64,000 bases of DNA, taken from assembly GCA_965649205.1 (NCBI GenBank), contig CBFGJV010000007.1, positions 17,466 to 81,465 on the forward strand, written 5' to 3'. Positions 19,236-58,400 of this stretch are shown here, piece by piece. This DNA is from a candidate division WOR-3 bacterium. GTDB lineage: Bacteria; Hydrothermota; Tepidihabitantia; Tepidihabitantales; Tepidihabitantaceae. A model generated the notes under the pieces. The model ran no database searches, had not been told where the DNA came from, and saw only the letters and a list, made by a program, of their open reading frames with translations. The first letter of the stretch is position 1, and each line of letters begins with the position of its first letter. The position numbers and the translations under genes were made by a program.

Positions 19236-19263
19236 TTGACACAGAAAGCGAAGTATATACACT
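19236..19263 (+). promoter_or_regulatory. Candidate sigma70-type promoter for adk
   Basis: TTGACA (19236-19241), 16-nt spacer, TACACT (19258-19263), about 20 nt upstream of the adk ATG. Confidence 0.35.
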
Positions 19264-19283
19264 TGCGCAGGTGTAAACTCTGT

Positions 19284-19952: not shown

Positions 19953-19961
19953 GGCAGAACC

Positions 19962-28786: not shown

Positions 28787-28861
28787 CTTGTCTGCAGTTA
28801 CAAGGATCGAGTCTATTACTGGCGCCAAAGAACCGGCGGCAAATAACCGATAAGGAGTCTA

Positions 28862-29902
28862 ATGGGTAGGAAAGGAATACTGGCCACGGTAAGTTGTGCA
28901 GGTTGAGCGTCCAAGCTTAGTAAGGCGCAGTTGGCGCTCGTACTTGACAAACTGAGAAGACACGAGGACCCCAGACTGCTTGTGGGTATTAATACTGCGG
29001 ACGACGCCGGGGTTTTCTTGTTGCGACCTGATCTGGCATTGGTGCAGACTGTGGATTTGCTCACGCCTATGGTGGAGGACCCCTATGTCTTTGGCCGGAT
29101 TGCGGCTACTAATTCTCTTTCAGACGTTTATGCCATGGCCGGCACGCCGGTGACAGTTTTGAACATAGCCGGTTTTCCGGCGCCCGCGGACAAATCCTGG
29201 CTTGCCGCTATATTGCAAGGCGGTGAGGACGCAGTGGCTGAGGCTGGGGCGGTGGTATGTGGCGGTCATACTTTCAACGAAAAGGAAATAAAGTTTGGGC
29301 TGGCCGTGACCGGTACCATTGATCCGGGGCGGATTGTAACTAATGCCGGCGCCAAGCCCGGAGACGTTCTGGTTCTGACCAAGCCTTTGGGAACAGGGAT
29401 ATTTGCACAAGTGATGATGAACGAAGATAAGGTTGATGAACGACTTTATCAGGCGGCAGTTCAATCGATGATGACCTTAAATCGGGCAGGGTCAGAGGCT
29501 ATGGTTCAACTGGGGGCGAATGCAGCAACGGATATTACCGGTTTTGGTTTGCTTGGACACGCCCAGGAGATGGCTCAGGCCAGTAGAGTGAGTATAAGGC
29601 TGGAGTTCAGCAGGATTCCCCTTCTGCCTGGGGTACGGGAGCTGGCGCGGGCCGGTATAGTGGATGCGGGGGTGGCTATGAATATGTCCAGTTTCGAGCA
29701 GTATGTGCACTGGGCCGAGTCCATTGTTGAATCTGACCGCAATTTGCTTTGGGAGTCAGAAAGTTCCGGTGGTCTTCTAGTGAGCCTTCCTCAGGAAAGT
29801 GCAGAACGGTATCTGGAAGCGGTGGGTGAGAGGGGGGTACAGGCAGCGGTAATCGGCGAAGTGCGGACAGGACCGCCTGGCGAAGTGGAAGTAAGGAGTT
29901 AG
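28862..29902 (+). CDS. selD: Selenide, water dikinase (selenophosphate synthetase) with an in-frame TGA at 28904-28906 read as selenocysteine
   Basis: ATG at 28862 (AAGGAG upstream) gives MGRKGILATVSCAG-U-ASKLSKAQLALVLDKL in frame with ORF 28931-29902. This aligns with E. coli SelD HGAGCGCKISPKVLETIL, the TGA replacing the catalytic Cys17. The rest is a typical SelD/AIR-synthase-related fold. Confidence 0.85.
28920..28943 (+). promoter_or_regulatory. Candidate SECIS hairpin 13 nt downstream of the selD UGA
   Basis: GUA-A-GGCGC-[AGUUG]-GCGCU-CG-UAC stem-loop. The apical loop contains GU, and spacing from the UGA is similar to bacterial SECIS elements. Confidence 0.4.
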
Positions 29903-33594: not shown

Positions 33595-34647
33595 GTGAAT
33601 AGAAAAGCAGCTGTGTTATTGCTGGTTGGGGCGATATTGTGTGGTGTAGGAGGATGTGCTAAGAAGATGTTGCCTCCCAGTCCGGACAGGTTTACCCCGA
33701 ATCTGGAGGAAATAGTTACCCGCAATCGGGTCCGGCTGGAATTGAGGTTTGACGAGGATTTGGATCCAACACGGATTTCTGCCGACAGCTTTACTATTCA
33801 AGGACCAGAAGGCAGATCTTTGACGGTAAGAGTAGCCACGGCCGGTCGCAGGACCGGAACGGTGGAACTGTGGACAGAGCCTCAGGAGCCGGTTCTGTAT
33901 CGCATCACAGGGACGGTAGCGGATAGAGCAGGCAATATCCGCAGGTTCAATAGCCGTTTTCGAGGGTCGGCAAGAATGGATACGATTGCTCCCCGGGTGT
34001 TGAAGATTACTCCGGAGCCGGGCAGTGCAGGCAGGCGCAGACCTATTGTGAGGATAGATTTCAATGAACCGGTGGATACCGCCCCGGGTCTTTCTTTCTT
34101 GTTCGTGCCCGCAGCCGCAGATAGTTTTTTCCATACTCGCTGGGAACCTGATGGGCAGACGGTGATATGGCAGTTGGGGGAAAGAGGAGAGGGCGGGAAA
34201 GATTCGACTTTAGGAGGGAGGGATTCTGTTGCTGATGTGCGCGCGATACTTTCCGGCGTTATCTATTTTGCGCTTCTGCCCGGGGTAACTGATTTGGAGG
34301 GTAACCGCAGCGAAGAACCAGTTTTTACTTATTTTACGGCTGATTCGGCGTTATCGGCTCTGCCGGTGAGGGGGCGGGTAGTGTCTTCTACAAGTTGGCA
34401 GGTTGCTTTGGTGTTTTTTTATTCTCCGATCAGTCCCGGTTTGGCAGTGGTGCGAGCAGACGGCTCTTTCTCGACTGTTTTGGCGGCCGGGAAGTATAGA
34501 GTGTGGGCTGCGGCGGATGAAAATGGAGATAATCAGGCAGAGCTGGTCAGCCCGACAACAGAGTTTGCTACCGAGCAGGAAAGTCTTAATCTCCATCTGC
34601 AATATTCCGAAACGCGTAAACCGCTTGCTGCCTACAGGCAGCCGTAA
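33595..34647 (+). CDS. Lipoprotein with bacterial Ig-like (SbsA/Big_5-type) domains
   Basis: Signal peptide with a lipobox-like LCGVGGC, followed by two Ig-like segments. Confidence 0.45.
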   Translation: MNRKAAVLLLVGAILCGVGGCAKKMLPPSPDRFTPNLEEIVTRNRVRLELRFDEDLDPTRISADSFTIQGPEGRSLTVRVATAGRRTGTVELWTEPQEPVLYRITGTVADRAGNIRRFNSRFRGSARMDTIAPRVLKITPEPGSAGRRRPIVRIDFNEPVDTAPGLSFLFVPAAADSFFHTRWEPDGQTVIWQLGERGEGGKDSTLGGRDSVADVRAILSGVIYFALLPGVTDLEGNRSEEPVFTYFTADSALSALPVRGRVVSSTSWQVALVFFYSPISPGLAVVRADGSFSTVLAAGKYRVWAAADENGDNQAELVSPTTEFATEQESLNLHLQYSETRKPLAAYRQP

Positions 34648-34660
34648 GTGGGTTGTGTCT

Positions 34661-36637
34661 ATGGATATCATTTTGACCGGATTACTGCTGCTGCTGGCGG
34701 TGGCGATGTACTTCCGCAACCTGCGCGAGGCGGGTTGGCTGCTGGTGCTGCGGTTATTGGTAGTGCTGCTTCTGGCGGCAATACTTTTAAATCGTACTCT
34801 CAGCTTTCATTGGCGGGTAAAACCGGGAAAGGTGGCGGTGCTGATTGACCGTTCTCTGAGTATGGTGCACGGCCGGGCTGATATACTGGCAGTCGCCGCG
34901 GCCCGACGTTTTCCGGTGCCGGCCGGACTGGCAACCGAGTGGTGGGAGTTTGCTGACGGTGTCTGGAGGACGAGGTCTTTGCGTGCCGAGCCGGTGGCTA
35001 CAGGTGATACGGCAGGCAATCGCCGTACGCGGCTGGGGCCGGCGCTGGCAACGATCATCAGGACTAGACCCGCAGCCGTGGTGGTAGTGAGTGACGGCCA
35101 AGATAATGGCGAGCTGAGCCCGGTGCAGGTGGCAAGGAACAGTGGTGTTCCCATCTATACCGTGGGGTGCGGGGTCACGGGGTTACGTAATGTAGAGGTG
35201 ACGGGGCTGCAGGTACCGCCGGTGGTCTATGCGGGCGATACCTTCACCGTTACCGGCCGGATACGTTATTCTGGTTTTCGTTCTGAGCCGGCAACAGCCC
35301 GGGTTGGACAGAAGGTTATAGCTCTTACTTTGGGCGAAGAGACAGCAGAGCAGGAGTGCAGTTTCACTCTGACCGCGGAGGGTATCGGCTACCAACTGGT
35401 GCGGTTCCAAGTGGACACTCTTCCGGACGAATTTGCTTATGCTGATAACTACGCAGAGACAGGGGTAGAAGTACTACCAGGTCGTATCCGGCTGGCGTAT
35501 GTTACCAACCGGCCTAGCCCGCAGACGCGGTTTGTGACTGATGTCATCAGACGGGAACCCAGGATGGAGTTGGCGCAGGTAGTAACACAGCCAACTGGAA
35601 GTTCCAGTGTTGCTGAGGCTGATGTTTATGTGCTAGACAACGTGAACGAGCCAGACTGGTCGACAGCCCAGAGGGACTTGCAATATCTGGTACACAAAGT
35701 GGAAAACGGCGCTGGGGCGTTGATTTTGGCCGGACCTGACTTTTTTCCTGTCCAACTGTTGCGAGAGTTGCTGCCCAGTGGTGCAGGTGTGAATAGAAAA
35801 CAGGGTAGCTTTCTTCCGCAGCTAGCCGAGGCGGGCAGGGTGTATTCCTGGCTTGCTGGTATTCGCTTCGAACGGTTGCCGCCGTTTGGCGAATTATTTG
35901 AGCCGGTCATAAATGGTCAGACTGAAGTCTGGGTGACCACATCTGAAAATGTCTTGCCGGTGATTATGGCCTACCGGGTAGGCAAAGGAAGGGTGGTGTA
36001 CGTGGCCGGACATCCTTTGTGGCGATGGGGTTTTGGTGCAGATATCCAATCGAGGAATGAGAGTCAACTCAGTATGTTTATTGTTGGTGCGGTTCGTTAT
36101 CTGGCGGAAAGGGAAAGACAACTGTTTCGTATGGTAACTGACAAATCCACTTATCTGCGTGGAGAGCCAGTGCGGGTGACGCTACATGCCTTGACGCCTG
36201 ACGGCTCGGCCTGGGTTGGACTGGATGCAAATCTGTGGGTCGATTCTATCCGACAGCTGCCCATGCGGGAGAGGGCAGCTGGCGCATATGAAGCCAACGT
36301 GGCCGCACTAGTTCCTGGCTACCATACCTTACGGGCCGAAGTCTTTCTGGGTGATTCACTGGTGGGAACCGCTGCTGTTTCTTTTGCCGTGTCCGCACGC
36401 GAACTGGAATTGTCCCGGTTGGGTCTGGACCGGCAGATGCTTGTCGCATTAGCCGAAGCGAGTGGAGGTCAATATTTTAGATGGGATAGTCTGCCGCCTG
36501 AAGGCTTTGCACTGGCGCAGGCTTCCTACCGTCGCAGTCTGGCATTCGAGCCGAGAAGAAGTTTCTGGGTCTATGGGTTGGTGGCTGTCCTCCTGGGGGC
36601 CGAGCTGGTACTGCGGAGGAAGAGAGGTCTATTGTGA
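34661..36637 (+). CDS. BatA-like membrane protein: N-terminal double-transmembrane anchor plus a von Willebrand factor A domain and a large C-terminal extension
   Basis: ATG at 34661. Two TM helices then a MIDAS-like DRSLS motif (VAVLIDRSLSMV), SDGQDNG and TVGCG VWA motifs, and a C-terminal TM helix. The ORF-track start at 34403 overlaps the upstream gene. Confidence 0.55.
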   Translation: MDIILTGLLLLLAVAMYFRNLREAGWLLVLRLLVVLLLAAILLNRTLSFHWRVKPGKVAVLIDRSLSMVHGRADILAVAAARRFPVPAGLATEWWEFADGVWRTRSLRAEPVATGDTAGNRRTRLGPALATIIRTRPAAVVVVSDGQDNGELSPVQVARNSGVPIYTVGCGVTGLRNVEVTGLQVPPVVYAGDTFTVTGRIRYSGFRSEPATARVGQKVIALTLGEETAEQECSFTLTAEGIGYQLVRFQVDTLPDEFAYADNYAETGVEVLPGRIRLAYVTNRPSPQTRFVTDVIRREPRMELAQVVTQPTGSSSVAEADVYVLDNVNEPDWSTAQRDLQYLVHKVENGAGALILAGPDFFPVQLLRELLPSGAGVNRKQGSFLPQLAEAGRVYSWLAGIRFERLPPFGELFEPVINGQTEVWVTTSENVLPVIMAYRVGKGRVVYVAGHPLWRWGFGADIQSRNESQLSMFIVGAVRYLAERERQLFRMVTDKSTYLRGEPVRVTLHALTPDGSAWVGLDANLWVDSIRQLPMRERAAGAYEANVAALVPGYHTLRAEVFLGDSLVGTAAVSFAVSARELELSRLGLDRQMLVALAEASGGQYFRWDSLPPEGFALAQASYRRSLAFEPRRSFWVYGLVAVLLGAELVLRRKRGLL

Positions 36638-37400: not shown

Positions 37401-39392
37401 CTACCTGCCCAGTTTTTCCAGAAACATTCTGACCTTGGTTGCTTCCTGCGCGTCCGGAGCTGTGTTCAAGTAAGCCTGCAGGTAATGCCGAGCACTGTCC
37501 GGTTGTTCGGCGTAGAAGAACACTATCCCCTTGTTTTCTATTGCGCTGGCATATTCTGGGAAGTAGCGTAAGGAGAGATTGAAATCGGCCAGAGCCTTGG
37601 CGTGGTCTCCAACGCGGAAGTACAGAATGCCTCTGCGGTTGGCCGCGGCCGCGAAACGACGACACAAGTCCTGTGATTCTTTTTCGCGGAATAATCTCGT
37701 ATTGTATCGTTCCGGGCCGGGAAAGGTAAAGTTTGAGGGAATGTAGAGAGAGTCAGCTGCAGAAGCGGGTAACAGCCGATAAGTTAGCCCTTGCATCTGC
37801 AGACGGAATTCATGCCACGACTCTGGCCAGGACTGGAAATCTGCCGGCATCCAGAAAATCGGTCGGGTAGTTATCCATTCCTGTACCAGAAGAAATTTTA
37901 CTTCCTGCGTCGTGTTCTTAGCCAGTTCGCCAAAGCGGGCACCGGTTGCTTGACTCTGCCAGAGTCGTCGGGCAAGAGCAAAGGCGGGTTCGGGTACGAC
38001 TGCACGTTTGCTCAGAGCTTCCAAATACCAAGGGAAAGCCAGCAAGTGTTCGTTCACTAGCAGGAATTGTTCCCGGTCCTGTTCGGTAAAGAGCCAGCGT
38101 AATCCTTGGGTAGTACTGTATTCATCTGTGAACAGGATTGAACCTGCGGGTATTTCTCTGAGCAGCGAGCTACTCAAGTCGCGCAGGCCGTGCAGATGGC
38201 GCCGGTTGTGGACCGGATAATGGAGAATCAGTGGCAGCAGATGCAGGGCGAAGCCAGCTGCAAGAAGCCATTTTCTTTTCCGCCGATTGATATAAGCAAA
38301 TCCCAAGCCGATGAGAAGGACAAGGGCAAAGTAGGCGGGCAGGAAAAATCCTTCCTTGTCAGGAATGTTGTAGGCGAGAGCAAAGCCGGTACAAAAGACA
38401 AAGCTTAAGACCAGAGCCAGACAGAGTCTTTTGTTCTCTTTGAAACAGCAATATATCCCCGGAAAAAGAAAAAGCCAGGAGGCAAGGAACTGTTTGGCCA
38501 ACAGTCCGGGCAGCAGACTAAGTTGGTTGGCAAAATAACCCGGGACCCCGCCTTCAAGTCGGTAGCGATAGGTCCGGCTGGTGACAAATTCGTACCAGTC
38601 AGAAAGACTGTCAACCCCTCCCCAGCCTCCCAGCTGATCAGGTCGGGAGAGAAACGGCAAGGTAGCATACAGAAAGGGACCGACCAGCAGCAGAAGCAGG
38701 AGAGTTAGAATCTGTACACGTCCTAAGCGGAAAGTGGGATGCATAGTTGTCAGCAGGAGAAGCCCGGGCAACCAGAACAGTATTGTCAGGTGATTAGCCA
38801 TACCCAGTCCGAAGGTGAAAGCAGCCAGAGTTAGGAGTCCTAGTGCAGAGCTGGTGGAACCACGGGTGGAGTCACCACTGGTGGCCGCTGGCATTGGACG
38901 CGAGTGGACAATTCCAGGGACAGCCCAAGTTGTAACCGCATAAACGCAGACGGACAGAAGAAACGCATTCAAGGCATAGACCTCGAGAGCAGTAGCCTGG
39001 TTCCAGAGTTCGAAAGAGAAACCCCAGGCCAGAGCGGTAAAAAGTCCGGCCCAGCGGTTATTGGTCAAGCGGACGAGTGTCAGATATGTGAACAGACAAG
39101 AACCGGCTGCGGCGAGAGACGAAAACAAGTTCATCCGGAATGGCATTGACAGTAGAGGGATAAATGACAAGACCCGGAGGAGAAGGGTCAGTAATGGATA
39201 GCCTGGCGGGTGAGCCATACAAAACAGACGCCCGCACAGCATCAGTTCAGTGGCGTCGGTCCAATAGATGTCCCGGCAGGCGGTCGCCAGATACAAAAGG
39301 AAAGGTATGAAAAAAGAGCCGAACGGAGGGAGACTTTGGAAGATAGAAGACCGGGTAGTCTTGGCAGCGAGTGCCAGACCAAAGCGTTTCAC
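37401..39392 (-). CDS. DUF2723-family (TMEM260-like) multi-pass membrane glycosyltransferase-like protein with a C-terminal TPR region
   Basis: N-terminal signature TDATELMLCGRLFCMAHPPGYPLLTLL, at least 10 TM helices, and a TPR-like C-terminal ~120 aa. Confidence 0.6.
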   Translation of the reverse strand: MKRFGLALAAKTTRSSIFQSLPPFGSFFIPFLLYLATACRDIYWTDATELMLCGRLFCMAHPPGYPLLTLLLRVLSFIPLLSMPFRMNLFSSLAAAGSCLFTYLTLVRLTNNRWAGLFTALAWGFSFELWNQATALEVYALNAFLLSVCVYAVTTWAVPGIVHSRPMPAATSGDSTRGSTSSALGLLTLAAFTFGLGMANHLTILFWLPGLLLLTTMHPTFRLGRVQILTLLLLLLVGPFLYATLPFLSRPDQLGGWGGVDSLSDWYEFVTSRTYRYRLEGGVPGYFANQLSLLPGLLAKQFLASWLFLFPGIYCCFKENKRLCLALVLSFVFCTGFALAYNIPDKEGFFLPAYFALVLLIGLGFAYINRRKRKWLLAAGFALHLLPLILHYPVHNRRHLHGLRDLSSSLLREIPAGSILFTDEYSTTQGLRWLFTEQDREQFLLVNEHLLAFPWYLEALSKRAVVPEPAFALARRLWQSQATGARFGELAKNTTQEVKFLLVQEWITTRPIFWMPADFQSWPESWHEFRLQMQGLTYRLLPASAADSLYIPSNFTFPGPERYNTRLFREKESQDLCRRFAAAANRRGILYFRVGDHAKALADFNLSLRYFPEYASAIENKGIVFFYAEQPDSARHYLQAYLNTAPDAQEATKVRMFLEKLGR

Positions 39393-39489
39393 GGCGGGAT
39401 TCTAAGACAGGCTGAGATGCAGTCAAGGCAAATTGACTCCGACAGGTGGTAAGTGTATTATCATAGTAAACTAACTCATTCTGTTGGTG

Positions 39490-42400
39490 ATGTTCCGCAA
39501 CCTATTTAGCACCCTGCTCCTGCTGGCAAGCAGCCAGTTTGCAGGAGTAAGTGGCTTACCCGCGGGCAGGGTGGCTTTCGACACCAGCTACTATAACAAC
39601 TATGTGCGGACGATGCGTAAAATAGATTCTCTGGTTTCCTTGCGTCCCAGCATAGCTTCGCTTGAAACTATTGCTGTTACCGAAACCGGAGGGCGGGCGG
39701 TAGTGGCGGTGAAACTGGCTGGCACTGCAAGCTCCCAGGGAACGACGCCCGCGATTCTTTTTGATGGAGCCCACCACGGTTGCGAGGTGCTGACGAGTGA
39801 AGTGTGTTTGAAGCTTTTGGCCTATCTGATTGCGGGGTACGATTCTAGCCCTGTTTTGCGGCGTTACATTGACTCTTTGCGCATTTTCATAGTGCCGCTG
39901 GTGAACCCGGACGGCCACGAAGTGAACTTTGTTACTCCTGATACTCTCTGGCGTAAGAATACCAGGGACAATAACAGCAACGGTTACTGGGACCCCGAAG
40001 ACGGAGTGGATTTGAACCGCAACTATCCGTTTCTCTGGGACATCGGGGGCAGTCCGTTTCCAAGTGACCGCGAGTACAGGGGACCTTATCCTTTGAGCGA
40101 AGCAGAAACGCAAGGCATGGTTGCTTTGTGTGCGCGGGAGAAGTTTCTTACCAATATCTGTTATCATTCCAGCCTGGAGGCGGAGGGCTGGGAAAAAATA
40201 TACTATCCCTGGGACTGGGGCGGTGTTCGTTCGCCGGACTATGACATCATCCGCCCCATAGCTATAGCGCTGGCCTCCAGCATCCCTAATCTCGCCGGTA
40301 CGGGTACTTATTCGGCGGCGATAGGGAATGCCCTTTCCGGCGGGATGTACCGTAACTGGTCATACTACAATTACGGTGTTTTCTCCTACACCGTAGAGAC
40401 CGGTATTTACTACCCTTCTCCGGCTGCAGCCGAATCTATCTGCGCGAACAATATACTTGGTGCCCGCTATCTTCTGGGTCGGACTCTTGGTTCGGCTGTT
40501 TGGGGTCGGGTTACTGATTCGGTCGATGGTAAACCTCTGGCTGCTCAAGTACTGTTGCTGGAAGTGGATACTCTTTCTCCGCGGCCGATTCTGCCGCGGA
40601 CTTCTGACTCTGTTCAGGGCCGTTTCTTTCGGCTTGTCAACCCGGGCGCCTACACTTTTCGTGTTTCGCGGCCGGGATATGTAACCAAAACAGTGTCTGT
40701 AACTGTACAAGAAGGACAACGGTCGAATTTAGAGGTGAGGCTGGCTAAACCTTCGGTTACAGTGGTTAGTCCGAATGGAGGTGAAAGCTGGATGGGTGGT
40801 ACCACTCAGACTATTAGGTGGCGAAAAGCAGATGCCGGATTCGCTACCTATCGGATTGTGCTTTCACGCGACGGGGGGCTAACCTATGCCGACACTATTG
40901 CCCGTAACATACCTGCAAGCGAGACGACTTTTCGTTGGATTCTGTCTTGGGTAAATTCTGCCACCTGCAGAATAATGGTCCAGGCTTTGGATAGCACAGG
41001 TGCGTTTATCTGTCAAGATGTCAGTGATGGCAACTTTGTTATTCAGACTGCGGTAACAGTACTCGTTCCCAATGGTGGGGAGATTTTGGGTGGCGGTCTA
41101 CCTTATACCGTAAGATGGCGAGTGATAGGTACGGGTTTTGCATTCTTGCGAGTGTTGCTTTCCACCAACGGTGGAATGACGTACACAGATACGATTGGTC
41201 AGGTGAGCGTGCAGGAAAGTGTCATTGTGTGGACACCGGCCTGGATGAATGTGAATACATGTCGTATCAGGGTTCAGGCGTTGGACAGCAGTGGCGCGGT
41301 GGTGGTGCATGATGCCAGCGACGGTAACTTCGCGGTGCGGACAGCAGTGACTGTAATGTCCCCGAACGGGGGTGAGTTTTGGGCCACTGGTGGTTATCGG
41401 ACGGTAAGATGGACTCGAACAGGTGGTGGATTCAGTGGCTATAGACTTCTTCTTTCTATGGATGGCGGTTTTACCTTTAAAGACACCATCGCCCGGGATG
41501 TGAACCCGGCCGAGAGTAGTTTTGTCTGGGTGATACCAACCGCTAACTCCAGTACCTGCTGGCTTATGGTTCAGGCGTTGGACAGCGCAGGCGGCGTGGT
41601 ATGTCAGGACGCCAGTGATGGCAGCTTTACGATTGCCGGCGTGGTAACCGTGTCGGTGCCAAATGGGGGAGAAGTCTGGGCCGGGAACGGCTTCCAGAAC
41701 ATCTATTGGAAGAAAACGGGCGTCAGTTTCGAATATCACCGGCTACTGCTTTCGCGCAACGGGGGACTTACCTATTCCGACACTATCGCGGCATATGTGG
41801 CGGCCGCAGAAAGCTCATACAGATGGCAGGTGTTTCCCGTCAATACGGATAAGTGTCGGGTGTGCGTGCAGCTAGTTGATGCGTCTGGTCAGGTGGTGGC
41901 TGCGGACTGGAGCGATCTTGATTTTACAATTGATTCGGACCCGCCTCTGGGTTTCAATCTGGTTCGACCGGCCAACTCTGCCTGGGCTAGCGGCACTCCG
42001 ATTTTTATATGGAACAGCGCCAGGGACAATTTCGGTATTGGCTATTACCAATTGTTTGTAGATGGGATATTGCGTATGGACAGTATTGCCGATACTGTTT
42101 GTACGTTTCTGCCGCCGGCCCTCGGTGAAGGCCTAAGAACCTGGACGGTGAAGGCAGTAGACCGGGCTGGAAACGCACGGCAATCAACGCAGACTTTTTC
42201 AGTCCGTATAGATACCACCCCTCCAGGTCCTTTTCATCTGCTTGCTCCAGCCGAGAGTTCCTGGATCAGCCGGAGTCTGTCGGTCCTTTCTTGGCAAGCC
42301 TCGTATGATGTTGGTTGTGGGCTTGCCGGTTATCAGTTATGGATTGACGGAGTTCCTAACCGGACGGATCTGTCCGCAAGTCAGACTTCGTGCTTGCCCG

Positions 42401-45400
42401 TTGCTCCTCTGAGTTTAGGATTGCACTCTTGGCAAGTACGGGCAGTGGATAGCGTAGGCAATGTGCGGGTATCGACACAGACGCGTACGTTCGGGGTGGA
42501 CACTGTCCCCCCAGAACCTTTTACTCTCGTTTTGCCCGATGATTCAAGCTGGGTTTCTGGGCGCCCTCGGTTTGTCTGGCACCAGTCGACTGATTCTTTG
42601 AGTGGTATCTGTCTTTACCGTGTGTATGTGTCCGGAACTGGGCGAGTGGATAGTATTCTGGCAACGGACACCAGCACGGTACCGACTTCTACCCTCGCCG
42701 AAGGACCGGCTACCTGGTACGTGCAGGCGATTGACCGGGCAGGCAATATACGTCACAGCCCGGTCCAGCGGATATTCGTGGATACCACCCCCCCCGCTGC
42801 ATTCAGCCTTGTTTCTCCGTCTGATGGGGCGTACCAGACAATGTCCTTGCCGGAATTTATCTGGCGGCAGAGTACGGACGCAGGCGTTGGGTTCCAGAAG
42901 TACGAATTGTGGATTGATGGGGTACGGAACAGAGAAAGCTTGGGGATGCTGGATACGATGGCTTTGCCAGCCACGGCTCTGAGCGAAGGGATTCATGTCT
43001 GGCAAATACGGGCCTACGACAAAGTGGCTAACGTCCGCTTTTCTAATCAGAGTCGTCAGGTTACTTTGGATTGGACCCCGCCCGACACTTTCAGTCTTTC
43101 GTTTCCCCGCGAAAATGATACCACCTATGTACAACAGCCTGTCTTCTTCTGGCGGCCGGCACGCGACAGGGTTTCCGGTTTGTCCCGATACCAGTTGCTG
43201 ATTGATGATACAGTCAGCAGAGACAGTATTGCGGAGTCTGATACCTTCGCCGTTCTGGTTTCTCCGCTTTCCTTTGGCAGCGTGGTCCAGTGGAAGGTGA
43301 AGGCTATTGACCGTGCCGGATTGGAGCGTCAATCCAGCAAGACTCACAGGTTGTATGTTGTCAAGGACAGCATTCCACCGACGATTCCGATTCAGGTGGC
43401 CCCAGGGCACGGTACCTATTGTCGGGATAGTGCGCCGACCTTCCGTTGGCGACGTTCCAGCGATACCTACAGTGGGGTGAGTCACTATTCTCTCCAGTAT
43501 GCGACAAACCCTGTTTGTAGCATGGGAATTACCGTGATGGTGAGCGATACTTTCTATCAAGTTCCTGGCCGGCTGGCCGATACGGTCTGGTACTGGCGAG
43601 TGCGGGCTCATGACCGGGTAGGCAATAGGAGCGACTGGTCTTTGGTGTGGTTTTTTGAAGTGGATACTCGCATTCCGGCCGCTCCTATGCTGCAGCGACC
43701 TGTGCGAGGAGCCTGGTGTAACAGTCGGGAGGTGGTTTTCAGCTGGACGCCAACGTCTTGGGGCATACTGTCTCCGGTCCGTTACATACTGCAGGTGGAT
43801 ACTGTTGTTCATTTTACCCATCCGCGGACAGATACGACTGCTGCCACTATGGACACAATGAATCTGTTAGAGCGCAAACGTTACTACTGGCGAGTGCGTG
43901 CCTTTGACTTAGCCGGAAACCAGGGTCCTTTTTCAGCAATAGACAGCTTTGGAGTGGATGCGGATGTACCGACGGTTCCGGCTCCGGTTGCTCCTGACAG
44001 CGGCGGATTGCTCAATGACTCGCTTGTTCGATTTGTCTGGCGGCGTAGCTCAGATGCCCTGAGCGGAGTACGACATTACGTTTTGCAGTGGGCACCTGAT
44101 TCTGATTTCGTTGGTGCTGTCACCAGAGATTCTGTTACGGATACAACCTGGGTGACAACGCCGCCGCTGATTGACACTGTTTGGTATTGGCGAGTAAGAG
44201 CGGTGGACAGAGCCCACAACCAGAGTAACTGGTCTTCAGTCTGGTCTTTTGCCAAGGACGCAACAGCTCCGGCGGTGCCGTTGCTTTTGGAACCAGTTCG
44301 GGGTTCCTGGAAGAACGCCCTACGTACTGTTTTTCGCTGGTCGCCGGTAGAGGATGAATGGCAGGGGTCTGGCTTTGGAATTTGCTCGCCGGTGCGTTAC
44401 ATAGTGCAGGTGGATACACTGCGCAGTTTCGTTTCTCCGTTGGTTGTAGATACCACCGCGTTCACCGAAGACACATTCGAACTTGGGGAGCGGGGGCGTT
44501 ACTACTGGCGTGTGCGGGCTTTTGATTTGGCCGGAAACCAGGGCTATTTTTCCAGTTTGGACAGTTTTGGTATAGACTACACGGCGCCAACTTCTCCGAT
44601 CATTGTGGCTCCGGACAGCGGCAAGGTATGTAACGATTCTGTGATGCGTTTTGTTTGGAGTCGGGCCAGGGACGTTTTGAGCGGCGTGGATCATTATCAG
44701 CTGCAGTATGGCCAAGACCCCGAGCTGGCTGATTCTGTTACGATTGATTCGCTTACGGATACAACTGCTGTTGTGGCACTGGTTGACGCTATTTGGTATT
44801 GGCGGTTGAGAGCGGTAGACCGGGCAGGCAATTTCAGCCTTTGGTCTAGCATCTGGAATTTTGAAAAAGATACAAGAGAACCCGAGCAGCCGACTCTTTT
44901 ATCGCCGGTAGGAGGTGTTTGGATTGCGGACAGCTTCGTATGCTGTAACTGGAGTCGGGTTTTTCTGAGAGGAGCCGGAACGGGATTGTTTTGTACTTTG
45001 CCGAGTAATTCGGAGTGGGCCGAGCGGGTTCCTCTTTCTTTGGTGCGTTACATACTGCAGATAGATACGACGCTGGCTTTTGTACGGCCGCGAGTAGACA
45101 CGCTTGATGATACAACCGCGACAGTAAACCGAGGAGAGGGACGTCATTTCTGGCGCGTGCGGGCCTTTGACCTGGCAGGTAATCAAGGAGCTTTTTCTCA
45201 CGTGGACAGCTTCGGCGTAGATTTAACTAGACCGACGGTGCCGATGCTCGAACATCCGCCGGATAATTTTACACTGGTCGACTCCTTATGTACTTTTATT
45301 TGGCACTATGCCCAGGACTGGCCCAGCGGAGTGGCGGACTACAGACTACAGGTGGCATCTGATACCGGCTTCAGCCGGTTGCAGCGTGACACGGTAGTAG

Positions 45401-45816
45401 CTGATACCAGTTGTCGGTTGCTGGTCGCTGATTCGGTTTGCTACTGGCGTGTGCGTTGTAAAGACCGAGCCGGTAACCTGAGCAATTGGTCGGTTAGGCG
45501 CAGGTTGCGAGTAATCGGTCCGGGGGCAGTGGTGGAAAGGTCTCCACAACTGTTGTCGGGTGTTTTGGAGCTGGCGGGACCGGTTGTGTTTCGTGATCGC
45601 CTGGTGCTGACCTGCGTTCTAAGAAGAGAGGTGGTAGTGCGACTTTCTTTGTACAACAGTGCAGGTCGGGAGATGACGGTTTTTTGGTCAGGCAAACAGC
45701 CTGCTGGGAGATACAAGATTACCTGTAACAGTTTATCGATCCCTGCCGGCATCTATTTTCTCAGTCTGGATGCAGACGGTCTTGTGGCAAAACTAAAGGT
45801 GGTAAAGGCCGAATAG
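39490..45816 (+). CDS. 2109-aa secreted protein: signal peptide, M14 zinc carboxypeptidase domain, prealbumin-like domain, about 5 Kre9/KNH-like ~100-aa repeats, about 13 Ig/FN3-like ~135-aa repeats, T9SS C-terminal sorting domain
   Basis: ATG at 39490 (MFRNLFSTLLLLASS). M14 motifs HGCE (HxxE), VDLNRNY, ICYHSS, YTVETG. Repeats of SPNGGE.W..G....I.W. then repeats with W.W..S.D..SG...Y.L..D and YYWRVRA.D.AGN. C-terminus LSLYNSAGREM...GIYFLSLDADGLVAKLKVVKAE. Confidence 0.75.
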   Translation: MFRNLFSTLLLLASSQFAGVSGLPAGRVAFDTSYYNNYVRTMRKIDSLVSLRPSIASLETIAVTETGGRAVVAVKLAGTASSQGTTPAILFDGAHHGCEVLTSEVCLKLLAYLIAGYDSSPVLRRYIDSLRIFIVPLVNPDGHEVNFVTPDTLWRKNTRDNNSNGYWDPEDGVDLNRNYPFLWDIGGSPFPSDREYRGPYPLSEAETQGMVALCAREKFLTNICYHSSLEAEGWEKIYYPWDWGGVRSPDYDIIRPIAIALASSIPNLAGTGTYSAAIGNALSGGMYRNWSYYNYGVFSYTVETGIYYPSPAAAESICANNILGARYLLGRTLGSAVWGRVTDSVDGKPLAAQVLLLEVDTLSPRPILPRTSDSVQGRFFRLVNPGAYTFRVSRPGYVTKTVSVTVQEGQRSNLEVRLAKPSVTVVSPNGGESWMGGTTQTIRWRKADAGFATYRIVLSRDGGLTYADTIARNIPASETTFRWILSWVNSATCRIMVQALDSTGAFICQDVSDGNFVIQTAVTVLVPNGGEILGGGLPYTVRWRVIGTGFAFLRVLLSTNGGMTYTDTIGQVSVQESVIVWTPAWMNVNTCRIRVQALDSSGAVVVHDASDGNFAVRTAVTVMSPNGGEFWATGGYRTVRWTRTGGGFSGYRLLLSMDGGFTFKDTIARDVNPAESSFVWVIPTANSSTCWLMVQALDSAGGVVCQDASDGSFTIAGVVTVSVPNGGEVWAGNGFQNIYWKKTGVSFEYHRLLLSRNGGLTYSDTIAAYVAAAESSYRWQVFPVNTDKCRVCVQLVDASGQVVAADWSDLDFTIDSDPPLGFNLVRPANSAWASGTPIFIWNSARDNFGIGYYQLFVDGILRMDSIADTVCTFLPPALGEGLRTWTVKAVDRAGNARQSTQTFSVRIDTTPPGPFHLLAPAESSWISRSLSVLSWQASYDVGCGLAGYQLWIDGVPNRTDLSASQTSCLPVAPLSLGLHSWQVRAVDSVGNVRVSTQTRTFGVDTVPPEPFTLVLPDDSSWVSGRPRFVWHQSTDSLSGICLYRVYVSGTGRVDSILATDTSTVPTSTLAEGPATWYVQAIDRAGNIRHSPVQRIFVDTTPPAAFSLVSPSDGAYQTMSLPEFIWRQSTDAGVGFQKYELWIDGVRNRESLGMLDTMALPATALSEGIHVWQIRAYDKVANVRFSNQSRQVTLDWTPPDTFSLSFPRENDTTYVQQPVFFWRPARDRVSGLSRYQLLIDDTVSRDSIAESDTFAVLVSPLSFGSVVQWKVKAIDRAGLERQSSKTHRLYVVKDSIPPTIPIQVAPGHGTYCRDSAPTFRWRRSSDTYSGVSHYSLQYATNPVCSMGITVMVSDTFYQVPGRLADTVWYWRVRAHDRVGNRSDWSLVWFFEVDTRIPAAPMLQRPVRGAWCNSREVVFSWTPTSWGILSPVRYILQVDTVVHFTHPRTDTTAATMDTMNLLERKRYYWRVRAFDLAGNQGPFSAIDSFGVDADVPTVPAPVAPDSGGLLNDSLVRFVWRRSSDALSGVRHYVLQWAPDSDFVGAVTRDSVTDTTWVTTPPLIDTVWYWRVRAVDRAHNQSNWSSVWSFAKDATAPAVPLLLEPVRGSWKNALRTVFRWSPVEDEWQGSGFGICSPVRYIVQVDTLRSFVSPLVVDTTAFTEDTFELGERGRYYWRVRAFDLAGNQGYFSSLDSFGIDYTAPTSPIIVAPDSGKVCNDSVMRFVWSRARDVLSGVDHYQLQYGQDPELADSVTIDSLTDTTAVVALVDAIWYWRLRAVDRAGNFSLWSSIWNFEKDTREPEQPTLLSPVGGVWIADSFVCCNWSRVFLRGAGTGLFCTLPSNSEWAERVPLSLVRYILQIDTTLAFVRPRVDTLDDTTATVNRGEGRHFWRVRAFDLAGNQGAFSHVDSFGVDLTRPTVPMLEHPPDNFTLVDSLCTFIWHYAQDWPSGVADYRLQVASDTGFSRLQRDTVVADTSCRLLVADSVCYWRVRCKDRAGNLSNWSVRRRLRVIGPGAVVERSPQLLSGVLELAGPVVFRDRLVLTCVLRREVVVRLSLYNSAGREMTVFWSGKQPAGRYKITCNSLSIPAGIYFLSLDADGLVAKLKVVKAE

Positions 45817-45906: not shown

Positions 45907-45934
45907 TTGACAAAATGAGTTCTTTGGCTATATT
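45907..45934 (+). promoter_or_regulatory. Sigma70-type promoter of the S10 operon
   Basis: TTGACA (45907-45912), 16-nt spacer, TATATT (45929-45934), about 120 nt upstream of rpsJ. Leader contains a GNRA-capped hairpin GGCGCUA-GAAA-UAGUGCC (45943-45960). Confidence 0.5.
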
Positions 45935-46052: not shown

Positions 46053-46376
46053 ATGAGCCTGATAAGGACATCGAAGAAGATACGTATTAAGCTTAAGGCT
46101 TACGACCACCGGGTGCTGGACCAGTCCGCTCGCGATATAGTGGATGTGGCCAAGAGGACTGGTGCTCAGGTTTCCGGGCCGGTGCCGTTGCCCACAAAGC
46201 GTACGCTGTTCACTGTACTGCGTTCTCCTCATGTGGATAAGAAGTCGCGGGAACAGTTTGAACTGCGGGTGCATAAGCGCCTGATAGAGATTTCTAATGC
46301 TACCGCTGAAATGGTGGATGCTTTGATGAAGCTGGAAGTACCTGCCGGCGTAGAAGTAGAGATTAGGTCAGCTTGA
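46053..46376 (+). CDS. rpsJ: 30S ribosomal protein S10
   Basis: [42 protein letters not shown]. Confidence 0.95.
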
Positions 46377-53738: not shown

Positions 53739-55475
53739 ATGATAAGTCTGCTTCATCTCTTGACACTGTTTCTTATCGGAACAGGAACTGCTGATTCAGT
53801 AGAATCGGTGAAGTTTGTGGGCGGGCATGCTTTTTCGGCGCGGGTTCTGGGTTCACAGGTCAGTCTGCGACGTGGACAGATTCTGGAGGAACAAAAGATT
53901 GAAGAGTCTGCACGTAATCTGGAACATTTCTTGCAGGCAAATGGTTTTCGCAGGGCCCGTGTCAGTTGGTACCTGAAACCGGGAAAAAGGCACAACATTG
54001 TAGTGTTTCAGATTAATGAGGGAAGGAGAGCAAGGGTGGGTTCATTGAATATTTTGGGGGTGCAGAGTTTTGACAGTGTACGTCTGGTTAGGCTGTTGCC
54101 GGTTTCGCCTGGGAAATTTTACACATCAGCCGCGCTGGAGCTTTGCGAAGAAGCTGTAAGAACCTTCTACCAAAATTCTGGGTTTCCTTTTGTTGAGGTG
54201 CAGGCCAATTGGAGTTTTGATGTAGAAAACGGTAGACGGGAAGAAGTAAACGACACCCTGGCTCATTTGGTGTTGAAGGTAGCAGAAGGGACGCGCTGCT
54301 ATCTGGGCGATATCAGGGTAAGAGGGCTACGCACAATTCGTCCTGCTACTGTGACTAGGGTTACGGAATTGCGGCCTGGCGAAATGTTCAGTCAACGACG
54401 TTTGCAGGAAGCCAGTCGCAGACTCTATGCCACTCATTTGTTCCAGCGCGTTTTCTATCATGTTCTCTGGCCTGATTCAACAAAGGACACGGTTGCTGTC
54501 CGGTTTGACGTTGTAGAACAGGAATATAGAGCGTTTTCGGTTGGAGCAGGGTTGGAAGCACCCCCGTGGCGAGCAGTGGCGTCTGGCGGGTGGGAGCATA
54601 ATAATATTCTAAACCGGGGCCAGCAGCTTGAAATAGCCGCGGACTTTGGTTTTGATGTCAAGAGAAACTATCGTGCCTCCATAGATTTGCACTACCGTGT
54701 TCCGTATTTGGTCTTGACCAGGGTTGATTTTCAATCCCATCCTTTTTTCTACTGGGAAAAGGTTGATTCATCGTTTTGGCGCGAATACGGTATCGAAAAT
54801 GGTCTTAGTCACAGTCTTTCCAAGTACGTTAACCTGGGGTTGTCTAACCGGTTTCGTCTGGTAGCTGATACCAGTCGGGGCATTACAAACCTGCTGGGAT
54901 TGATTGCCCAGCATGATTCCCGTAACGATATTTTTGAACCGAGGGAGGGTATGTATCTTAGATTTGGAGCAGAGGCGGCGGGGGGAGTGTTACGAGGAGA
55001 CAATGATTTTTACCGCCTGACCGGTGAGCTGAGGAGTTTCTATTTCGTAGGTTGTGTACTTGCTTGTAGGGTTTTCGCCGGCAGGTGTTTCCCCTATGGG
55101 AGAACCCAGCGCATTCCGTATTATGAGGGGTTTACTTTGGGTGGGCGCAACAGCCTACGGGGTTACGCAGATCAATCGCTTGGTCCAGATTCAGGCGTGG
55201 CAGGAAGGTTCGGTCCGGCGGTTTTGAATCACAATTTGGAGTTGCGTCTCGGTTATTTGTGGGGACGGTTGGGTGCGGTTTTGTTTTGGGACGGGGGAAT
55301 GGTAATTGATTGGCCGGTTGGTAAGGATATGCCGACGTATGAACAATCTGCTGGCGCAGGACTCCGGATCCGTACCCCTATTGGTCCTTTGCGGTTGGAC
55401 TGGGGAAGACGTTTGAGAAATGTACCTCCCGAAGATAGAGGTAGATTCTATCTAGGCTTGTTGCATGTTTTTTAG
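53739..55475 (+). CDS. tamA: TamA-like Omp85-family outer-membrane protein (about 3 POTRA domains plus beta-barrel)
   Basis: 578 aa (TamA-sized rather than the ~800-aa BamA). Signal peptide, POTRA-like repeats, and a C-terminal Omp85/surface-antigen barrel ending in an aromatic-rich strand (FYLGLLHVF). Followed by a TamB-like gene. Confidence 0.65.
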   Translation: MISLLHLLTLFLIGTGTADSVESVKFVGGHAFSARVLGSQVSLRRGQILEEQKIEESARNLEHFLQANGFRRARVSWYLKPGKRHNIVVFQINEGRRARVGSLNILGVQSFDSVRLVRLLPVSPGKFYTSAALELCEEAVRTFYQNSGFPFVEVQANWSFDVENGRREEVNDTLAHLVLKVAEGTRCYLGDIRVRGLRTIRPATVTRVTELRPGEMFSQRRLQEASRRLYATHLFQRVFYHVLWPDSTKDTVAVRFDVVEQEYRAFSVGAGLEAPPWRAVASGGWEHNNILNRGQQLEIAADFGFDVKRNYRASIDLHYRVPYLVLTRVDFQSHPFFYWEKVDSSFWREYGIENGLSHSLSKYVNLGLSNRFRLVADTSRGITNLLGLIAQHDSRNDIFEPREGMYLRFGAEAAGGVLRGDNDFYRLTGELRSFYFVGCVLACRVFAGRCFPYGRTQRIPYYEGFTLGGRNSLRGYADQSLGPDSGVAGRFGPAVLNHNLELRLGYLWGRLGAVLFWDGGMVIDWPVGKDMPTYEQSAGAGLRIRTPIGPLRLDWGRRLRNVPPEDRGRFYLGLLHVF

Positions 55476-55496
55476 TCACGGAGAAAACAGGGTAGA

Positions 55497-58400
55497 ATGA
55501 AGAAACGTCAGGCGGCGCGGGCGGGTGTTGTAATTGCAGGGTTATTAGGAGTAATAGTCCTGGGGGCTGTCTTGCTGAGTTGCTTCCGGCAGCAGATAGC
55601 GCGGTTGGTAGCCGACGCGGCGGTTCACTACGTCGGTCATTTACTCTCGGTAAAGATTACTTACAGACGTTTTTCTGGGAATTTATTGCGTACACCTAGG
55701 TTCGAGGACGTGGGCGTAGTTTTCGGGAAGGATTCCGTTAAAGCAAGTGAGATAACATTTAGCTATGATCCGCTGGGGTTCTTGCGCGGTTCAGTTCCGA
55801 TTTCTGAGGTTGAAATACGAAACCCTACTGTGTTTATACATACGCAGTCAAGAGCCGGGGACAGAGAGCGCACATCTAAAACTGGCTGGAGGATAGGCAG
55901 ATATCCTCGTTGGTATTTGCGTCGATTGCACTTGGACGGCGGAATGTTGTTCATGGACAATGAGCTAAGACTGGAGTCACTGGCCTTGAATGTGCGTGCG
56001 CATTCGAGGGTAGACCTTTTGAAGGCAGAACTTAGAGGAGGACGAGGAAAGTTCGTTAGGGAAAACATCAGTCTGCAGGAAATGCATGCCGATTTGATTA
56101 TGACCGCTGATTCTCTTGTGCTGGAACAGCTGGGTGGGTCTACTTCTGGTTCGAACGTAGTGGGCAGACTGAGTATTAATTTGAGTCGGCAGGAGCTGAC
56201 GGTGGTCCTAGACAGTGTCGTTATTGACTTGGCTGAGTTTGTGTCCATTCCGGGCAGAATTGGGATAAAGGGTTCGGGAACGAAAGGTGCTGTGAGACTT
56301 GAGGCAGAGGGTAATTACGTAATTGAAGGATTAAGGCCTGCTAACGTCTGTCTGCCTAGGATTGCAGGTAAACTCAGTTTGTGCGACAAGGGTATTGTTT
56401 TTGAAGCAGCAGGAGCAGATTCAGAACTGGGTTCCCTTGAGGCTCGGGGTACGTTTGAACTGAAGGAAAGACGCTATTCCGTGGAATTGAAAGTGACAGG
56501 AATGAAGCTAAGTGCGATTAGACCTTCGTTTGCTCCTGTTCGAATGACCTTTGACTTGCAGGCGAGAGGATACGGAGGCGACTCGGTGGCATTTTGGGCT
56601 GGGGCTCAGGTTCCGGAAGTGGGAGTGGAAACTTTACTGGTTTCCGGAAGGTACTTTCGTAATCGGTTTGGGTTGAAGCAGCTTGAACTACGGGGTGGGG
56701 TAGGAAGGCTCACTGTATCTGGTGAGGTGGAGCTGGGTGGGTTAGGAAGTAAAATTTTCTTGTTATCCATACCTGCTTGTTCAGTCAAGGCGGACAGTTT
56801 TGATTTGGGGCTCATAGCAGGATTGTGGTGCATTCCTGTTGCGGGCACACTCCGAGGAATATTGAGTGGGGCAGGTACGGTAGACAGCTTCGCTTTGCAG
56901 GGGAGTATGAGGGCTTCGGGGGTGAAGCTGTTCGGTCTCGGTATCACTTCTGCGCTGGCGGAAGTTGATGTAACTGTAAACAGTGGACTACGTGGTAGAC
57001 TCGTGCTGGGAGCTGAGGGACTCAAAGGAATGGGTATCGAGGCTGATGCGGCGCAATTTGTTTTGCTTGATTCTGATGTGGATTTTCGCATTGACCGACC
57101 AGAGGACAGAGTCCTGGTCGGGGGGAATTTATCGTTGACTAAGAACAGAATCGAATGTGAAGTGCGCAGGCTGGAGTTTGCAACGCGAGAAGAAACGTTG
57201 ACGGCAAACAGGCCATTTGAGTTTTATCTGGATAAGGATTCGGTGTTGGTTCGAGGGGTTAGTCTGCGGGCAGCTGACGGGGAACTGCAGTTTCAAGCTA
57301 CTGTGGGTGCTCGGGTTCGTCGTGTGGAAGCAAAAGGAAGCAACTTCAACCTCCGCAAGTTGCAGAAGTTGTTACACTTGCCAACGGAAGTGTGGGGAAC
57401 GTGTGATTTTGAGGTGTCGGGACAAGATACTTATCATTTGCGAACAGTAGTGAATGACCTAGAGGTTCCTTCAATAGGAATGAGGATGAAGAATCTGACG
57501 GCAGAGCTGGCAGCGAACGATAGCTGGGTAGAAATCAGAGATTTCAGGTTTGTTCATGTGAAAGACACCACCCGCGTTCATGGTAGTTTTTCTTATAACC
57601 CTGCGCATGGTCTAGTTCCTCGCCGTGTGAGCATACAGGCGGACATTGCTGACCCGGGAAGTTGGCCTATGTTTTTTCTCAGGCCAACGTTAGAGTTGGT
57701 GGAAGGCAAGCTGTTCGCCCGGCTCAGCTGGGAAGGAGATGTTTCAGAGCCGAACTTGAAAGGCAGGTTCAGAGTCGTATCAGGAAGATTGAAAGTTCCG
57801 GCGTTGAATCTGGTCTTAGAGCGAACAAATGCGGAATTCTCGGTACAGGGCAAGCGAATAGAGTTGGAGAAGTTGTCTGGTACTACCGGGGCTGGGTTGG
57901 TTACCGCCAGTGGTTTTGTAGACCTAGATGTGGGTTGGCTGGTGGATTCGTTACGGTTCAGGATAAGGCCGGAAGGGACAATAGTGAATCCTTTGCCGGA
58001 AGTATATGCAGTGATAGGAGGCGATATAGCGGTTGTCTGGCAACGGGGTTCTCCTTTGTCTTTGGAGGGTACGTTTGACGTAGCGGAAGCGCTGCTGGCT
58101 ATTGGCTTTGGTCAGTCTGCGATTGCCGGGTCAAGTACAGATTCCGTCATCTACGACCTGCGAATTAGAGCTGAGCGCGGAGTTTGGCTACGAAACCCGA
58201 TGGCGGACATTGAAATGTCTGCCGACCTGTTTTTGCGTAGAACTATGGAACGACAGATGTTCTCCGGTACTTTGAAGTCGCGGCAAGGAAGTATTTATTA
58301 CCTGGACCATACTCTGAGAGTGACTCGTGGTACTATAGGCTTTGAGGGTATAGAACGCCTTGATCCAACATTGGATATTGAGGCTGAGTTGCCGGTGCGT

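Follow-up and report, generated by a model that had tools for sequence, protein, structure and literature searches.

A predicted surface M14 carboxypeptidase with a sixteen-repeat stalk and a probable T9SS-type tail in a candidate division WOR-3 bacterium

The gene described here lies in a 64,000-nucleotide stretch (the window) of contig CBFGJV010000007.1, assembly GCA_965649205.1, from a candidate division WOR-3 bacterium. It is a single uninterrupted open reading frame (ORF) on the forward strand, with its ATG at position 39490 and its stop codon at 45814-45816, and encodes 2,108 aa. An earlier sequence-only reading had rightly recognised one ORF and had counted 2109 residues. The mechanically called ORF starts at TTG 39484, and use of the ATG at 39490 gives a product identical to a stored public protein (P0001). 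The mature product, minus signal peptide and tail, would have a mass of ~222 kDa. The modular outline of the sequence-only reading holds: a signal peptide is followed by an apparently active M14 zinc carboxypeptidase, a transthyretin (TTR)-like domain, two superfamilies of β-sandwich repeats and a tail resembling the sorting domains of type IX secretion systems (T9SS). The features of the gene are as follows.

39433..39461, + strand: sigma-70-like promoter candidate TTGACT-17-TATTAT, a pattern match alone (10/12 in a consensus scan), 29 nt 5' of the ATG
39490..45816, + strand: complete gene, 2,108 codons plus stop (ORF list, translation)
39490..39552, + strand: probable Sec signal peptide, aa 1 to ~21, MFRNLFSTLLLLASSQFAGVS (read from the sequence)
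39577..40404, + strand: M14 zinc carboxypeptidase catalytic domain, aa 30-305 (Pfam PF00246 and alignment to carboxypeptidase T)
40330-40332 and 40351-40353: codons of Ala281 and Arg288
40498..40743, + strand: CarboxypepD_reg (transthyretin/prealbumin-like) domain, aa 337-418 (Pfam PF13620)
40750..41931, + strand: four Kre9/KNH-like, Ig-like K repeats, aa 421-519, 520-617, 618-716 and 717-814 (motif positions, pairwise identity)
41932..43365, + strand: five Fn3/Big_13-like B repeats, aa 815-907, 908-1003, 1004-1097, 1098-1193 and 1194-1292 (alignment)
43366..45525, + strand: seven Fn3-like units A1-C1-A2-C2-A3-C3-A4, aa 1293-2012 (alignment, AlphaFold, Foldseek), namely A1 1293-1391, C1 1392-1489, A2 1490-1589, C2 1590-1695, A3 1696-1793, C3 1794-1910 and A4 1911-2012
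45565..45813, + strand: C-terminal sorting-type domain, aa ~2026-2108 (profiles, alignment, AlphaFold)

Repetitive genes in metagenome assemblies carry a general risk of being chimeric or of having a collapsed or expanded repeat array, and nothing beyond this general risk speaks for such an error here. Three independent assemblies were compared, namely the NCBI contig and the Logan assemblies of SRR32459165 and SRR8371833. The first Logan assembly encodes a 2,108-aa variant (P0039) that is 90% identical, with 220 substitutions and zero indels, and the second encodes an orthologue of 2,119 aa (P0002) that is 69% identical. In all three the carboxypeptidase gene lies directly 5' of the rpsJ/S10 ribosomal operon and the repeats are arranged in the same 4+5+7 order, which in P0002 was recovered with profiles made for each repeat type. 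Tandem Repeats Finder reported no array in the DNA of the gene. Its direct repeats are short and just 60-83% identical, at spacings of 294-297, 573-576 and 615-651 nt that are consistent with the protein-level units, and near-identical repeats able to mislead an assembler are absent. The GC content of the gene (0.52-0.54) is the same as that of its flanks. The three assemblies and the diverged DNA repeats together rule out an assembly artefact, and a chimera is effectively refuted, its probability being negligible. The ORF is real and is found stable across at least three related genomes.

In a codon comparison with the 69% identical orthologue, the proportion of nonsynonymous differences (pN) is 0.10-0.27 in every module of the head and stalk, while the synonymous proportion (pS) is saturated at ~0.7. 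The tail is the least conserved module (44% identity, pN 0.42). For the repeats, dN/dS is ~0.05-0.16 where dS can be estimated. At the codon level every module is under purifying selection, and the suggestion that the repeats are diverged in their DNA and ancient rather than artefactual is thus borne out. Full-length relatives are rare: with 8,000 candidates scored from a collection of 5.8 billion sequences, only P0001/P0039 and P0002 were found, and a scan of the GTDB species representatives gave as its only match an Omnitrophota fragment (L002) with 26% identity.

The N-terminal 21 residues contain a basic residue and a hydrophobic stretch, as in a signal peptide whose cleavage position is uncertain, and a lipobox cysteine is absent from this region. 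The catalytic domain begins ~8 residues further on and matches Peptidase_M14 (PF00246) at aa 44-305 with 153.1 bits against a cut-off of 21.6. The nearest solved structure by sequence is carboxypeptidase T of Thermoactinomyces vulgaris (8qvo, 1obr), which aligns with aa 30-304 at E 1e-22. Since this alignment opens at residue 5 of mature carboxypeptidase T, corresponding to aa 30, the window protein has no pro-segment, whereas carboxypeptidase T is made with one. Carboxypeptidase T in turn is without a TTR-like domain, stalk or sorting tail. The putative zinc ligands H96 and E99 (HxxE) and H226 (YHS) are the counterparts of H69, E72 and H196 of carboxypeptidase A, R155, N176 and R177 (DLNRN) of its carboxylate- and substrate-binding Arg127/Asn144/Arg145, and E303 of the catalytic Glu270. 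These seven residues are invariant in 42/42 aligned homologous heads, and the zinc ligands, the Arg/Asn/Arg set and the catalytic glutamate also align with carboxypeptidase T. By alignment the catalytic residue set is intact, in agreement with the motifs listed in the sequence-only reading.

The position of carboxypeptidase A Tyr248 (Tyr255 in carboxypeptidase T) is occupied by Ala281, although the register of this loop is uncertain. Ala281 is shared by 12/42 heads, which form the protein's own clade, and a tyrosine is present in 19 more distant homologues; another tyrosine, Y274, is conserved in 39/42 heads. The kinetics or specificity of the enzyme may therefore differ from those of the classical enzymes. 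Two residues before the invariant Trp290, 16/42 heads including the present one carry an arginine (Arg288), whereas 19/42, from the more distant clade, carry a glutamine; we take this site to correspond to residue 255 of carboxypeptidase A, where S1' specificity is set. Ala281 and Arg288 together hint that the C-terminal specificity may be unusual, possibly acidic, and are regarded as leads on specificity rather than as signs of inactivity. The alanine, together with the large share of the protein that is taken up by repeats, could also be read to mean that the protein serves chiefly as an adhesin or fibril in which the M14 domain has turned into a non-catalytic binding module. This is highly improbable, however, as the zinc ligands, catalytic glutamate and Arg/Asn/Arg set are all invariant and the head is among the better-conserved modules, being 78% identical to the 69% orthologue with a pN of 0.14. 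Moreover, substitutions of Tyr248 in carboxypeptidase A lower binding and do not abolish catalysis.

The prealbumin-like domain that had been proposed to follow the head is recovered as CarboxypepD_reg (PF13620), scoring 40.1 bits where 32.3 are required, and is the best-conserved module of the protein, with 82% identity to the 69% orthologue. The succession of a catalytic domain and a TTR-like domain with no pro-segment is also that of the metazoan M14B (N/E-type) carboxypeptidases D, M and N, and the head gives weaker matches to the metazoan structures 1h8l, 1uwy and 2nsm. A 'GGM' motif before the conserved tryptophan is presumably also common to the head and the metazoan N/E-type enzymes. 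Unlike the window protein, these enzymes are membrane- or glycosylphosphatidylinositol-anchored and stalkless, and by sequence the head stands closer to the A/B type and to carboxypeptidase T than to them.

The stalk comprises 16 repeats of β-sandwich type that span ~1,600 aa and make up 76% of the protein: four K, then five B, then seven A/C repeats. The K repeats, of which about five had been proposed and four are found between aa 421 and 814, are 98-99 aa long, share 44-53% pairwise identity and contain an SPNGGE motif and an Asp-box-like LSxDGGxTY motif. The whole protein matches Kre9_KNH (PF10342) with 36.8 bits against a cut-off of 24.6, the best stretch being aa 427-483, and one of the four K repeats matches this family when they are scanned singly. 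A K-repeat profile gave nothing significant against solved structures. K repeats occur elsewhere in up to 23 copies per protein, where they are found together with carbohydrate-related and BNR-type domains.

The remaining twelve repeats form one superfamily with the consensus DxxxPxxP...FxW...DxxSG..Y.L...W.V.A.D.AGN. They had been described as about thirteen units of ~135 aa; they are 93-117 aa long and fall into the three subtypes B, A and C. Among the B repeats, B1 and B3, and likewise B2 and B4, are 46% identical, at a DNA spacing of 573-576 nt, whereas adjacent units are 35-39% identical, suggesting that a block of two B units was duplicated. The A and C units alternate strictly as a super-repeat of 615-651 nt. 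A units are 35-58% identical among themselves and carry the signature WYWRVRAxDRxGN, and C units are 51-62% identical with the signatures SPVRYILQVDT and YYWRVRAFDLAGNQG. The 'D..SG...Y.L' motif that had been ascribed to all these repeats is present in the B and A units and absent from the C units, which have an insertion and SPVRYILQVDT instead. A D-T-x motif is conserved in nearly every B/A/C repeat, its threonine being nearly invariant.

The B/A/C repeats had been left without a name, which is understandable because no single repeat reaches a curated cut-off when scanned alone (best E 2.8e-5). A1 by itself, for example, scores 19.8 bits against the Ig_Rha78A_N cut-off of 27.4. Summed over the whole protein, the scores exceed the cut-offs of Big_13 (73.6 vs 27), Ig_Rha78A_N (65.9 vs 27.4) and the OmpL47-type NF047446 (65.6 vs 40). 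An AlphaFold model of A1-C1, built with 27 aligned di-domains, consists of two seven-strand sandwiches (pLDDT 94.7, pTM 0.81). In a Foldseek search of the PDB its top 14 matches are tandem fibronectin type III (FnIII) pairs of PTP-delta, LAR, DCC and contactins (E ~1e-10), and its best overall superposition is on the BIg rods of Salmonella SiiE (TM 0.6-0.7, up to 0.69), an adhesin that is exported by type I secretion and has no enzyme domain. A profile of 24 B/A/C repeats from two orthologues also matches a solved FnIII domain, that of chitinase A1 from Bacillus (1k85), at E 2.3e-9. On the basis of the model, the A/C repeats have the Fn3 fold.

Among 1.84 billion representative proteins, the same profile matches 65,906 when the threshold is E <= 1e-3 and 5,162 when it is E <= 1e-30, and many of these contain 10-56 copies of the repeat. 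Six of the top matches were scanned, and in each a Kelch, cohesin or unrecognised head is followed by many repeats and then by FlgD_ig or Por_Secre_tail; here too the stalk repeats reach Pfam only through summed weak scores. P0254, P0265 and P0391, for instance, resemble the window protein in having the same Fn3-like repeat in tandem (7-56 copies) and in ending with FlgD_ig/Por_Secre_tail, and differ in that their heads are Kelch propellers or cohesin, with no peptidase. The B/A/C repeat can thus be named an Fn3-type module, and it appears to be a very common connector of tail-bearing surface proteins that has no dedicated curated model.

Every repeat is nearer to its orthologue (58-81% identity) than to its paralogues (33-62%), which indicates that the array is old and is not being homogenised. 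The loop past the second strand of the C repeats is an indel hotspot, seen in C2 (nt 44257-44574), where the 69% orthologue has 23 extra residues, and in C3 (nt 44869-45219), where 17 extra residues are found in the window protein. Elsewhere the stalk is essentially free of indels, with one gapped position, in K2. Because the 16 domains keep their own identity without homogenisation, the stalk could be conceived as a position-specific scaffold, a rod of ~60 nm that docks other secreted hydrolases or binds defined ligands and is exported by a divergent WOR-3 T9SS-like pathway. This idea is a long shot; if true, the protein would be a peptidase counterpart of the cellulosome scaffoldin, in a phylum without a described T9SS.

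The tail is an 83-residue terminal domain preceded by a linker of ~13 aa that is predicted to be disordered. It aligns end to end with the tails of the short head homologues described below. In alignments of 12-16 sequences G2059, G2087 and K2103 are invariant and Y2089 of the GxY motif nearly so; G2059 sits after strand 3, in the strand 3/4 loop, and K2103 in the last strand. This glycine and this lysine correspond to two motifs of functional importance in the C-terminal domains (CTDs) of Porphyromonas gingivalis (PMC11285876). A lineage-adapted profile, made from the last 85 residues of 15 matches annotated with Por_Secre_tail, scores 21.8 bits on the tail (E 6e-9 per sequence) and 36.1 bits on that of the orthologue. 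Modelled with AlphaFold from a 12-row alignment, the C-terminal 100 residues form a sandwich of seven strands whose pLDDT exceeds 87 from the segment's residue 20 on, and the third-ranked Foldseek match is the T9SS CTD of Tannerella forsythia mirolase (8qb1, E 1.1e-3, target TM 0.61). The domain is always the last one, both in the M14 family and in unrelated proteins with the same stalk. The tail is therefore classed as a probable, though not proven, T9SS sorting domain of type A that has diverged.

When only aa 1-420 are used as the query, the search retrieves mostly proteins of ~450-570 aa comprising M14 and CarboxypepD_reg, most of them with Por_Secre_tail and/or FlgD_ig. The short relatives P0160-P0169, mostly ~450-540 aa long, are 44-49% identical over ~90% of aa 1-420, and one of them (P0166) bears the name 'M14 family zinc carboxypeptidase [candidate division WOR-3 bacterium]'. 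They are like the window protein in their catalytic residues, and most share its type of C-terminal tail. They differ in that the TTR-like domain is followed directly by the tail or ends the protein, where the window protein adds 16 domains. Relatives of intermediate form have different inserts (P0007, 1,216 aa; P0008, 1,445 aa, with CARDB). Given short relatives with matching head and tail, the simplest history is that the ~1,600-aa stalk was inserted between the TTR-like domain and the tail.

It is proposed that the gene product is an exported and probably surface-tethered M14 exopeptidase that serves in peptide scavenging and leaves the cell by a T9SS-type route, a reading held with moderate confidence. 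The Sec signal peptide would bring the protein to the periplasm, and the seven-strand C-terminal sandwich would act as the T9SS-type sorting domain for passage of the outer membrane. The tail would then be cleaved away, and the C-terminus so created would be attached to the surface of the cell, as is the case for cargo of Porphyromonas (PMC5445135). The 16-17 sandwich domains may form a rod of ~55-70 nm. Ig and Fn3 domains are usually ~3.5-4 nm long, and this typical length underlies the estimate. Because the enzyme lies N-terminal, the head and TTR-like domain would be held far from the cell by the rod. The head would trim C-terminal residues from peptides and proteins of the environment and so feed a fermentative, peptide-scavenging lifestyle. 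WOR-3 genomes have been described as those of fermenters rich in extracellular peptidases (PMC4411801). Within this proposal we infer export by T9SS, anchoring rather than release, the rod geometry, the substrate and the physiological role.

The window opens with a fragment of RpoC that shares 81-82% identity with proteins named as those of candidate division WOR-3, and the affiliation of the host with this phylum, named Caldifarciminota in the NCBI taxonomy, is shown at the level of sequence. The following points, together with the alanine at the Tyr248 position, weigh against the proposal. With TIGR04183 the tail reaches 21.0 of the 23 bits that the cut-off demands, and neither Por_Secre_tail (PF18962) nor PF13860 of Pfam gives a match, so that the tail described in the sequence-only reading as a canonical T9SS domain is T9SS-like and not canonical. 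Its N-terminal PNPF motif is degenerate (GPVVFRD here, SPVPFRD in the orthologue), and apart from mirolase its Foldseek matches are mostly generic Ig-like sandwiches with weak E-values. SprA/Sov, PorV, PorU and PorK/L/M/N are all absent from the 64-kb window. T9SS may occur in several phyla besides Bacteroidota, and WOR-3 is not on the list (PMC11285876). A search for WOR-3 together with T9SS or 'type IX secretion' found nothing in the literature collection used, nor did one for Caldifarciminota. The claim that the protein is T9SS cargo is accordingly kept at the strength of a proposal. The window does hold a second candidate cargo:

16880-18469, - strand: 529-aa ORF, papain-like Peptidase_C1 fragment with a FlgD_ig/T9SS-like tail

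The tail of this papain-like ORF scores 18.4 bits with TIGR04183, against the cut-off of 23, and 21.9 bits with the local tail profile.

These same observations (the sub-threshold tail, the generic structural matches, the window free of T9SS genes and a phylum in which the system is not documented) would also fit a protein that is no T9SS substrate at all, the last domain being a further Ig-like (FlgD_ig-like) module and the protein staying in the periplasm or taking another exit route. This appears improbable. From end to end the tail can be aligned with tails that carry a Por_Secre_tail annotation, and the alignment takes in the invariant Gly, the GxY motif and the Lys; the domain is also terminal wherever it occurs, across the M14 family and the unrelated stalk proteins alike. 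A 222-kDa rod of ~60 nm would, in addition, be hard to fit into a periplasm.

Whether a T9SS-exported protein would stay on the cell bears on the function of the stalk. The protein might instead be released into the medium, its repeats binding particles, detritus or other cells rather than acting as a spacer. The sequence holds no sign of anchoring, and retention in P. gingivalis needs the synthesis of anionic lipopolysaccharide (A-LPS), strains without A-LPS releasing their cargo (PMC5445135). The individual conservation of 16 unhomogenised repeats would fit position-specific binding, and the K repeats have their Asp-box-like motif and are found beside carbohydrate-related and BNR-type domains elsewhere. 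However, no single repeat matches a carbohydrate-binding or adhesin family above cut-off, and the same repeats stand behind unrelated heads such as Kelch and cohesin, as expected of a generic connector. Release with a binding stalk is considered rather unlikely.

The closest characterised analogue of the proposed surface-tethered exopeptidase appears, by architecture, to be CPG70 (PG0232) of P. gingivalis. This M14 carboxypeptidase contains PKD domains and a T9SS CTD that can be cleaved off; it is a proven T9SS substrate and stays at the surface via A-LPS (PMC5445135; PMC11285876). Both proteins have an M14 domain followed by Ig-like domains and a CTD, which in the window protein is probably of T9SS type. 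CPG70 differs in being ~821 aa long and Arg/Lys-specific, in having PKD domains, in belonging to Bacteroidota and in its role in gingipain maturation, whereas the window protein has a stalk of 16 Kre9/KNH- and Fn3-type domains and a WOR-3 host. CPG70 processes gingipains and adhesins (PMC5445135), and the window encodes another tail-bearing peptidase, so that the present enzyme could be thought to trim the C-termini of its own cell's surface proteins rather than nutrients. A stalk of ~60 nm would, however, keep the active site off the surface of its own cell, and the short stalk-less paralogue family would be better placed for such a task. The head, moreover, is closest to the broad-specificity carboxypeptidase T, and its likeness to CPG70 is one of architecture. 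A maturation enzyme of this kind is therefore judged decidedly improbable, and the surface-tethered scavenging exopeptidase is preferred.

Around the gene the window contains the following further features.

6645-8771, - strand: PMT_2-like GT-C-type glycosyltransferase with TPR
37401-39392, - strand: TMEM260-like O-mannosyltransferase/TPR protein, GT-C-type, divergent from the carboxypeptidase gene at a distance of 97 nt
45907-45934: stronger promoter-like site (11/12 matches), between the carboxypeptidase gene and the S10 operon, which starts at 46053

The adjacency of the TMEM260-like gene is kept in the 90% variant (L003). In L001, the locus of the 69% orthologue, the 226 nt that lie upstream of the gene show no trace of it, and a functional link was dropped for this reason. 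As the promoter-like site at 45907-45934 intervenes, co-transcription with the S10 operon is not assumed. The window is otherwise ordinary chromosome, with rpoC, recJ, a TonB-dependent receptor, pyruvate:ferredoxin oxidoreductase subunits, adk, map, pyrG, lptC/A/B, rpoN, selB, selD, mscS, the S10 operon, BamA/TamA-like and TamB genes, priA, a class V FBPase and MoxR.

Several of these neighbours deserve mention in their own right. The 350-aa product of 33595-34647 (+ strand) weakly matches the Ig-like family Big_5; it is followed by an ORF of ~658-744 aa (~34660-36637, + strand) with no Pfam or NCBIfam match, and both are conserved in L003. At 53739-58892 (+ strand) an Omp85/BamA-like protein (195 bits against the BamA equivalog cut-off of 297) is followed by a TamB-like protein of 1,131 aa, which suggests a TAM-like pair. 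Since selB adjoins a selD-like gene of the AIR-synthase family (26885-29902, + strand), the organism probably uses selenocysteine. The layout of the clusters of transcription and translation genes is unusual: rpoC (5-3010) lies ~43 kb from the S10 operon (46053 onward), and adk and map, the usual end of the spc operon, are found at 19236-20708, away from the ribosomal protein genes. Every 2-kb bin of the window has a positive GC skew, the cumulative skew climbs monotonically and the + strand carries most of the long genes, which probably places the window on a single replichore with its genes co-oriented with replication.

Overall, the protein can be seen as an uncommon, though not surprising, extension of a type of surface enzyme that is already known, an ordinary secreted carboxypeptidase of unusual length, and the current understanding of T9SS cargo and of M14 enzymes is unchanged by it. 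It is an example of how surface enzymes grow, in which a common short carboxypeptidase would have gained a stalk of 16 domains that is stable in at least three related genomes. For the Fn3-like stalk module, which is found in ~66,000 protein clusters, a specific model would help to annotate many giant surface proteins. The protein also adds sequence-level evidence that WOR-3 may use T9SS-type sorting tails that are narrowly missed by curated models trained on Bacteroidota, and such missed tails matter for the annotation of the secretomes of uncultured sediment fermenters.

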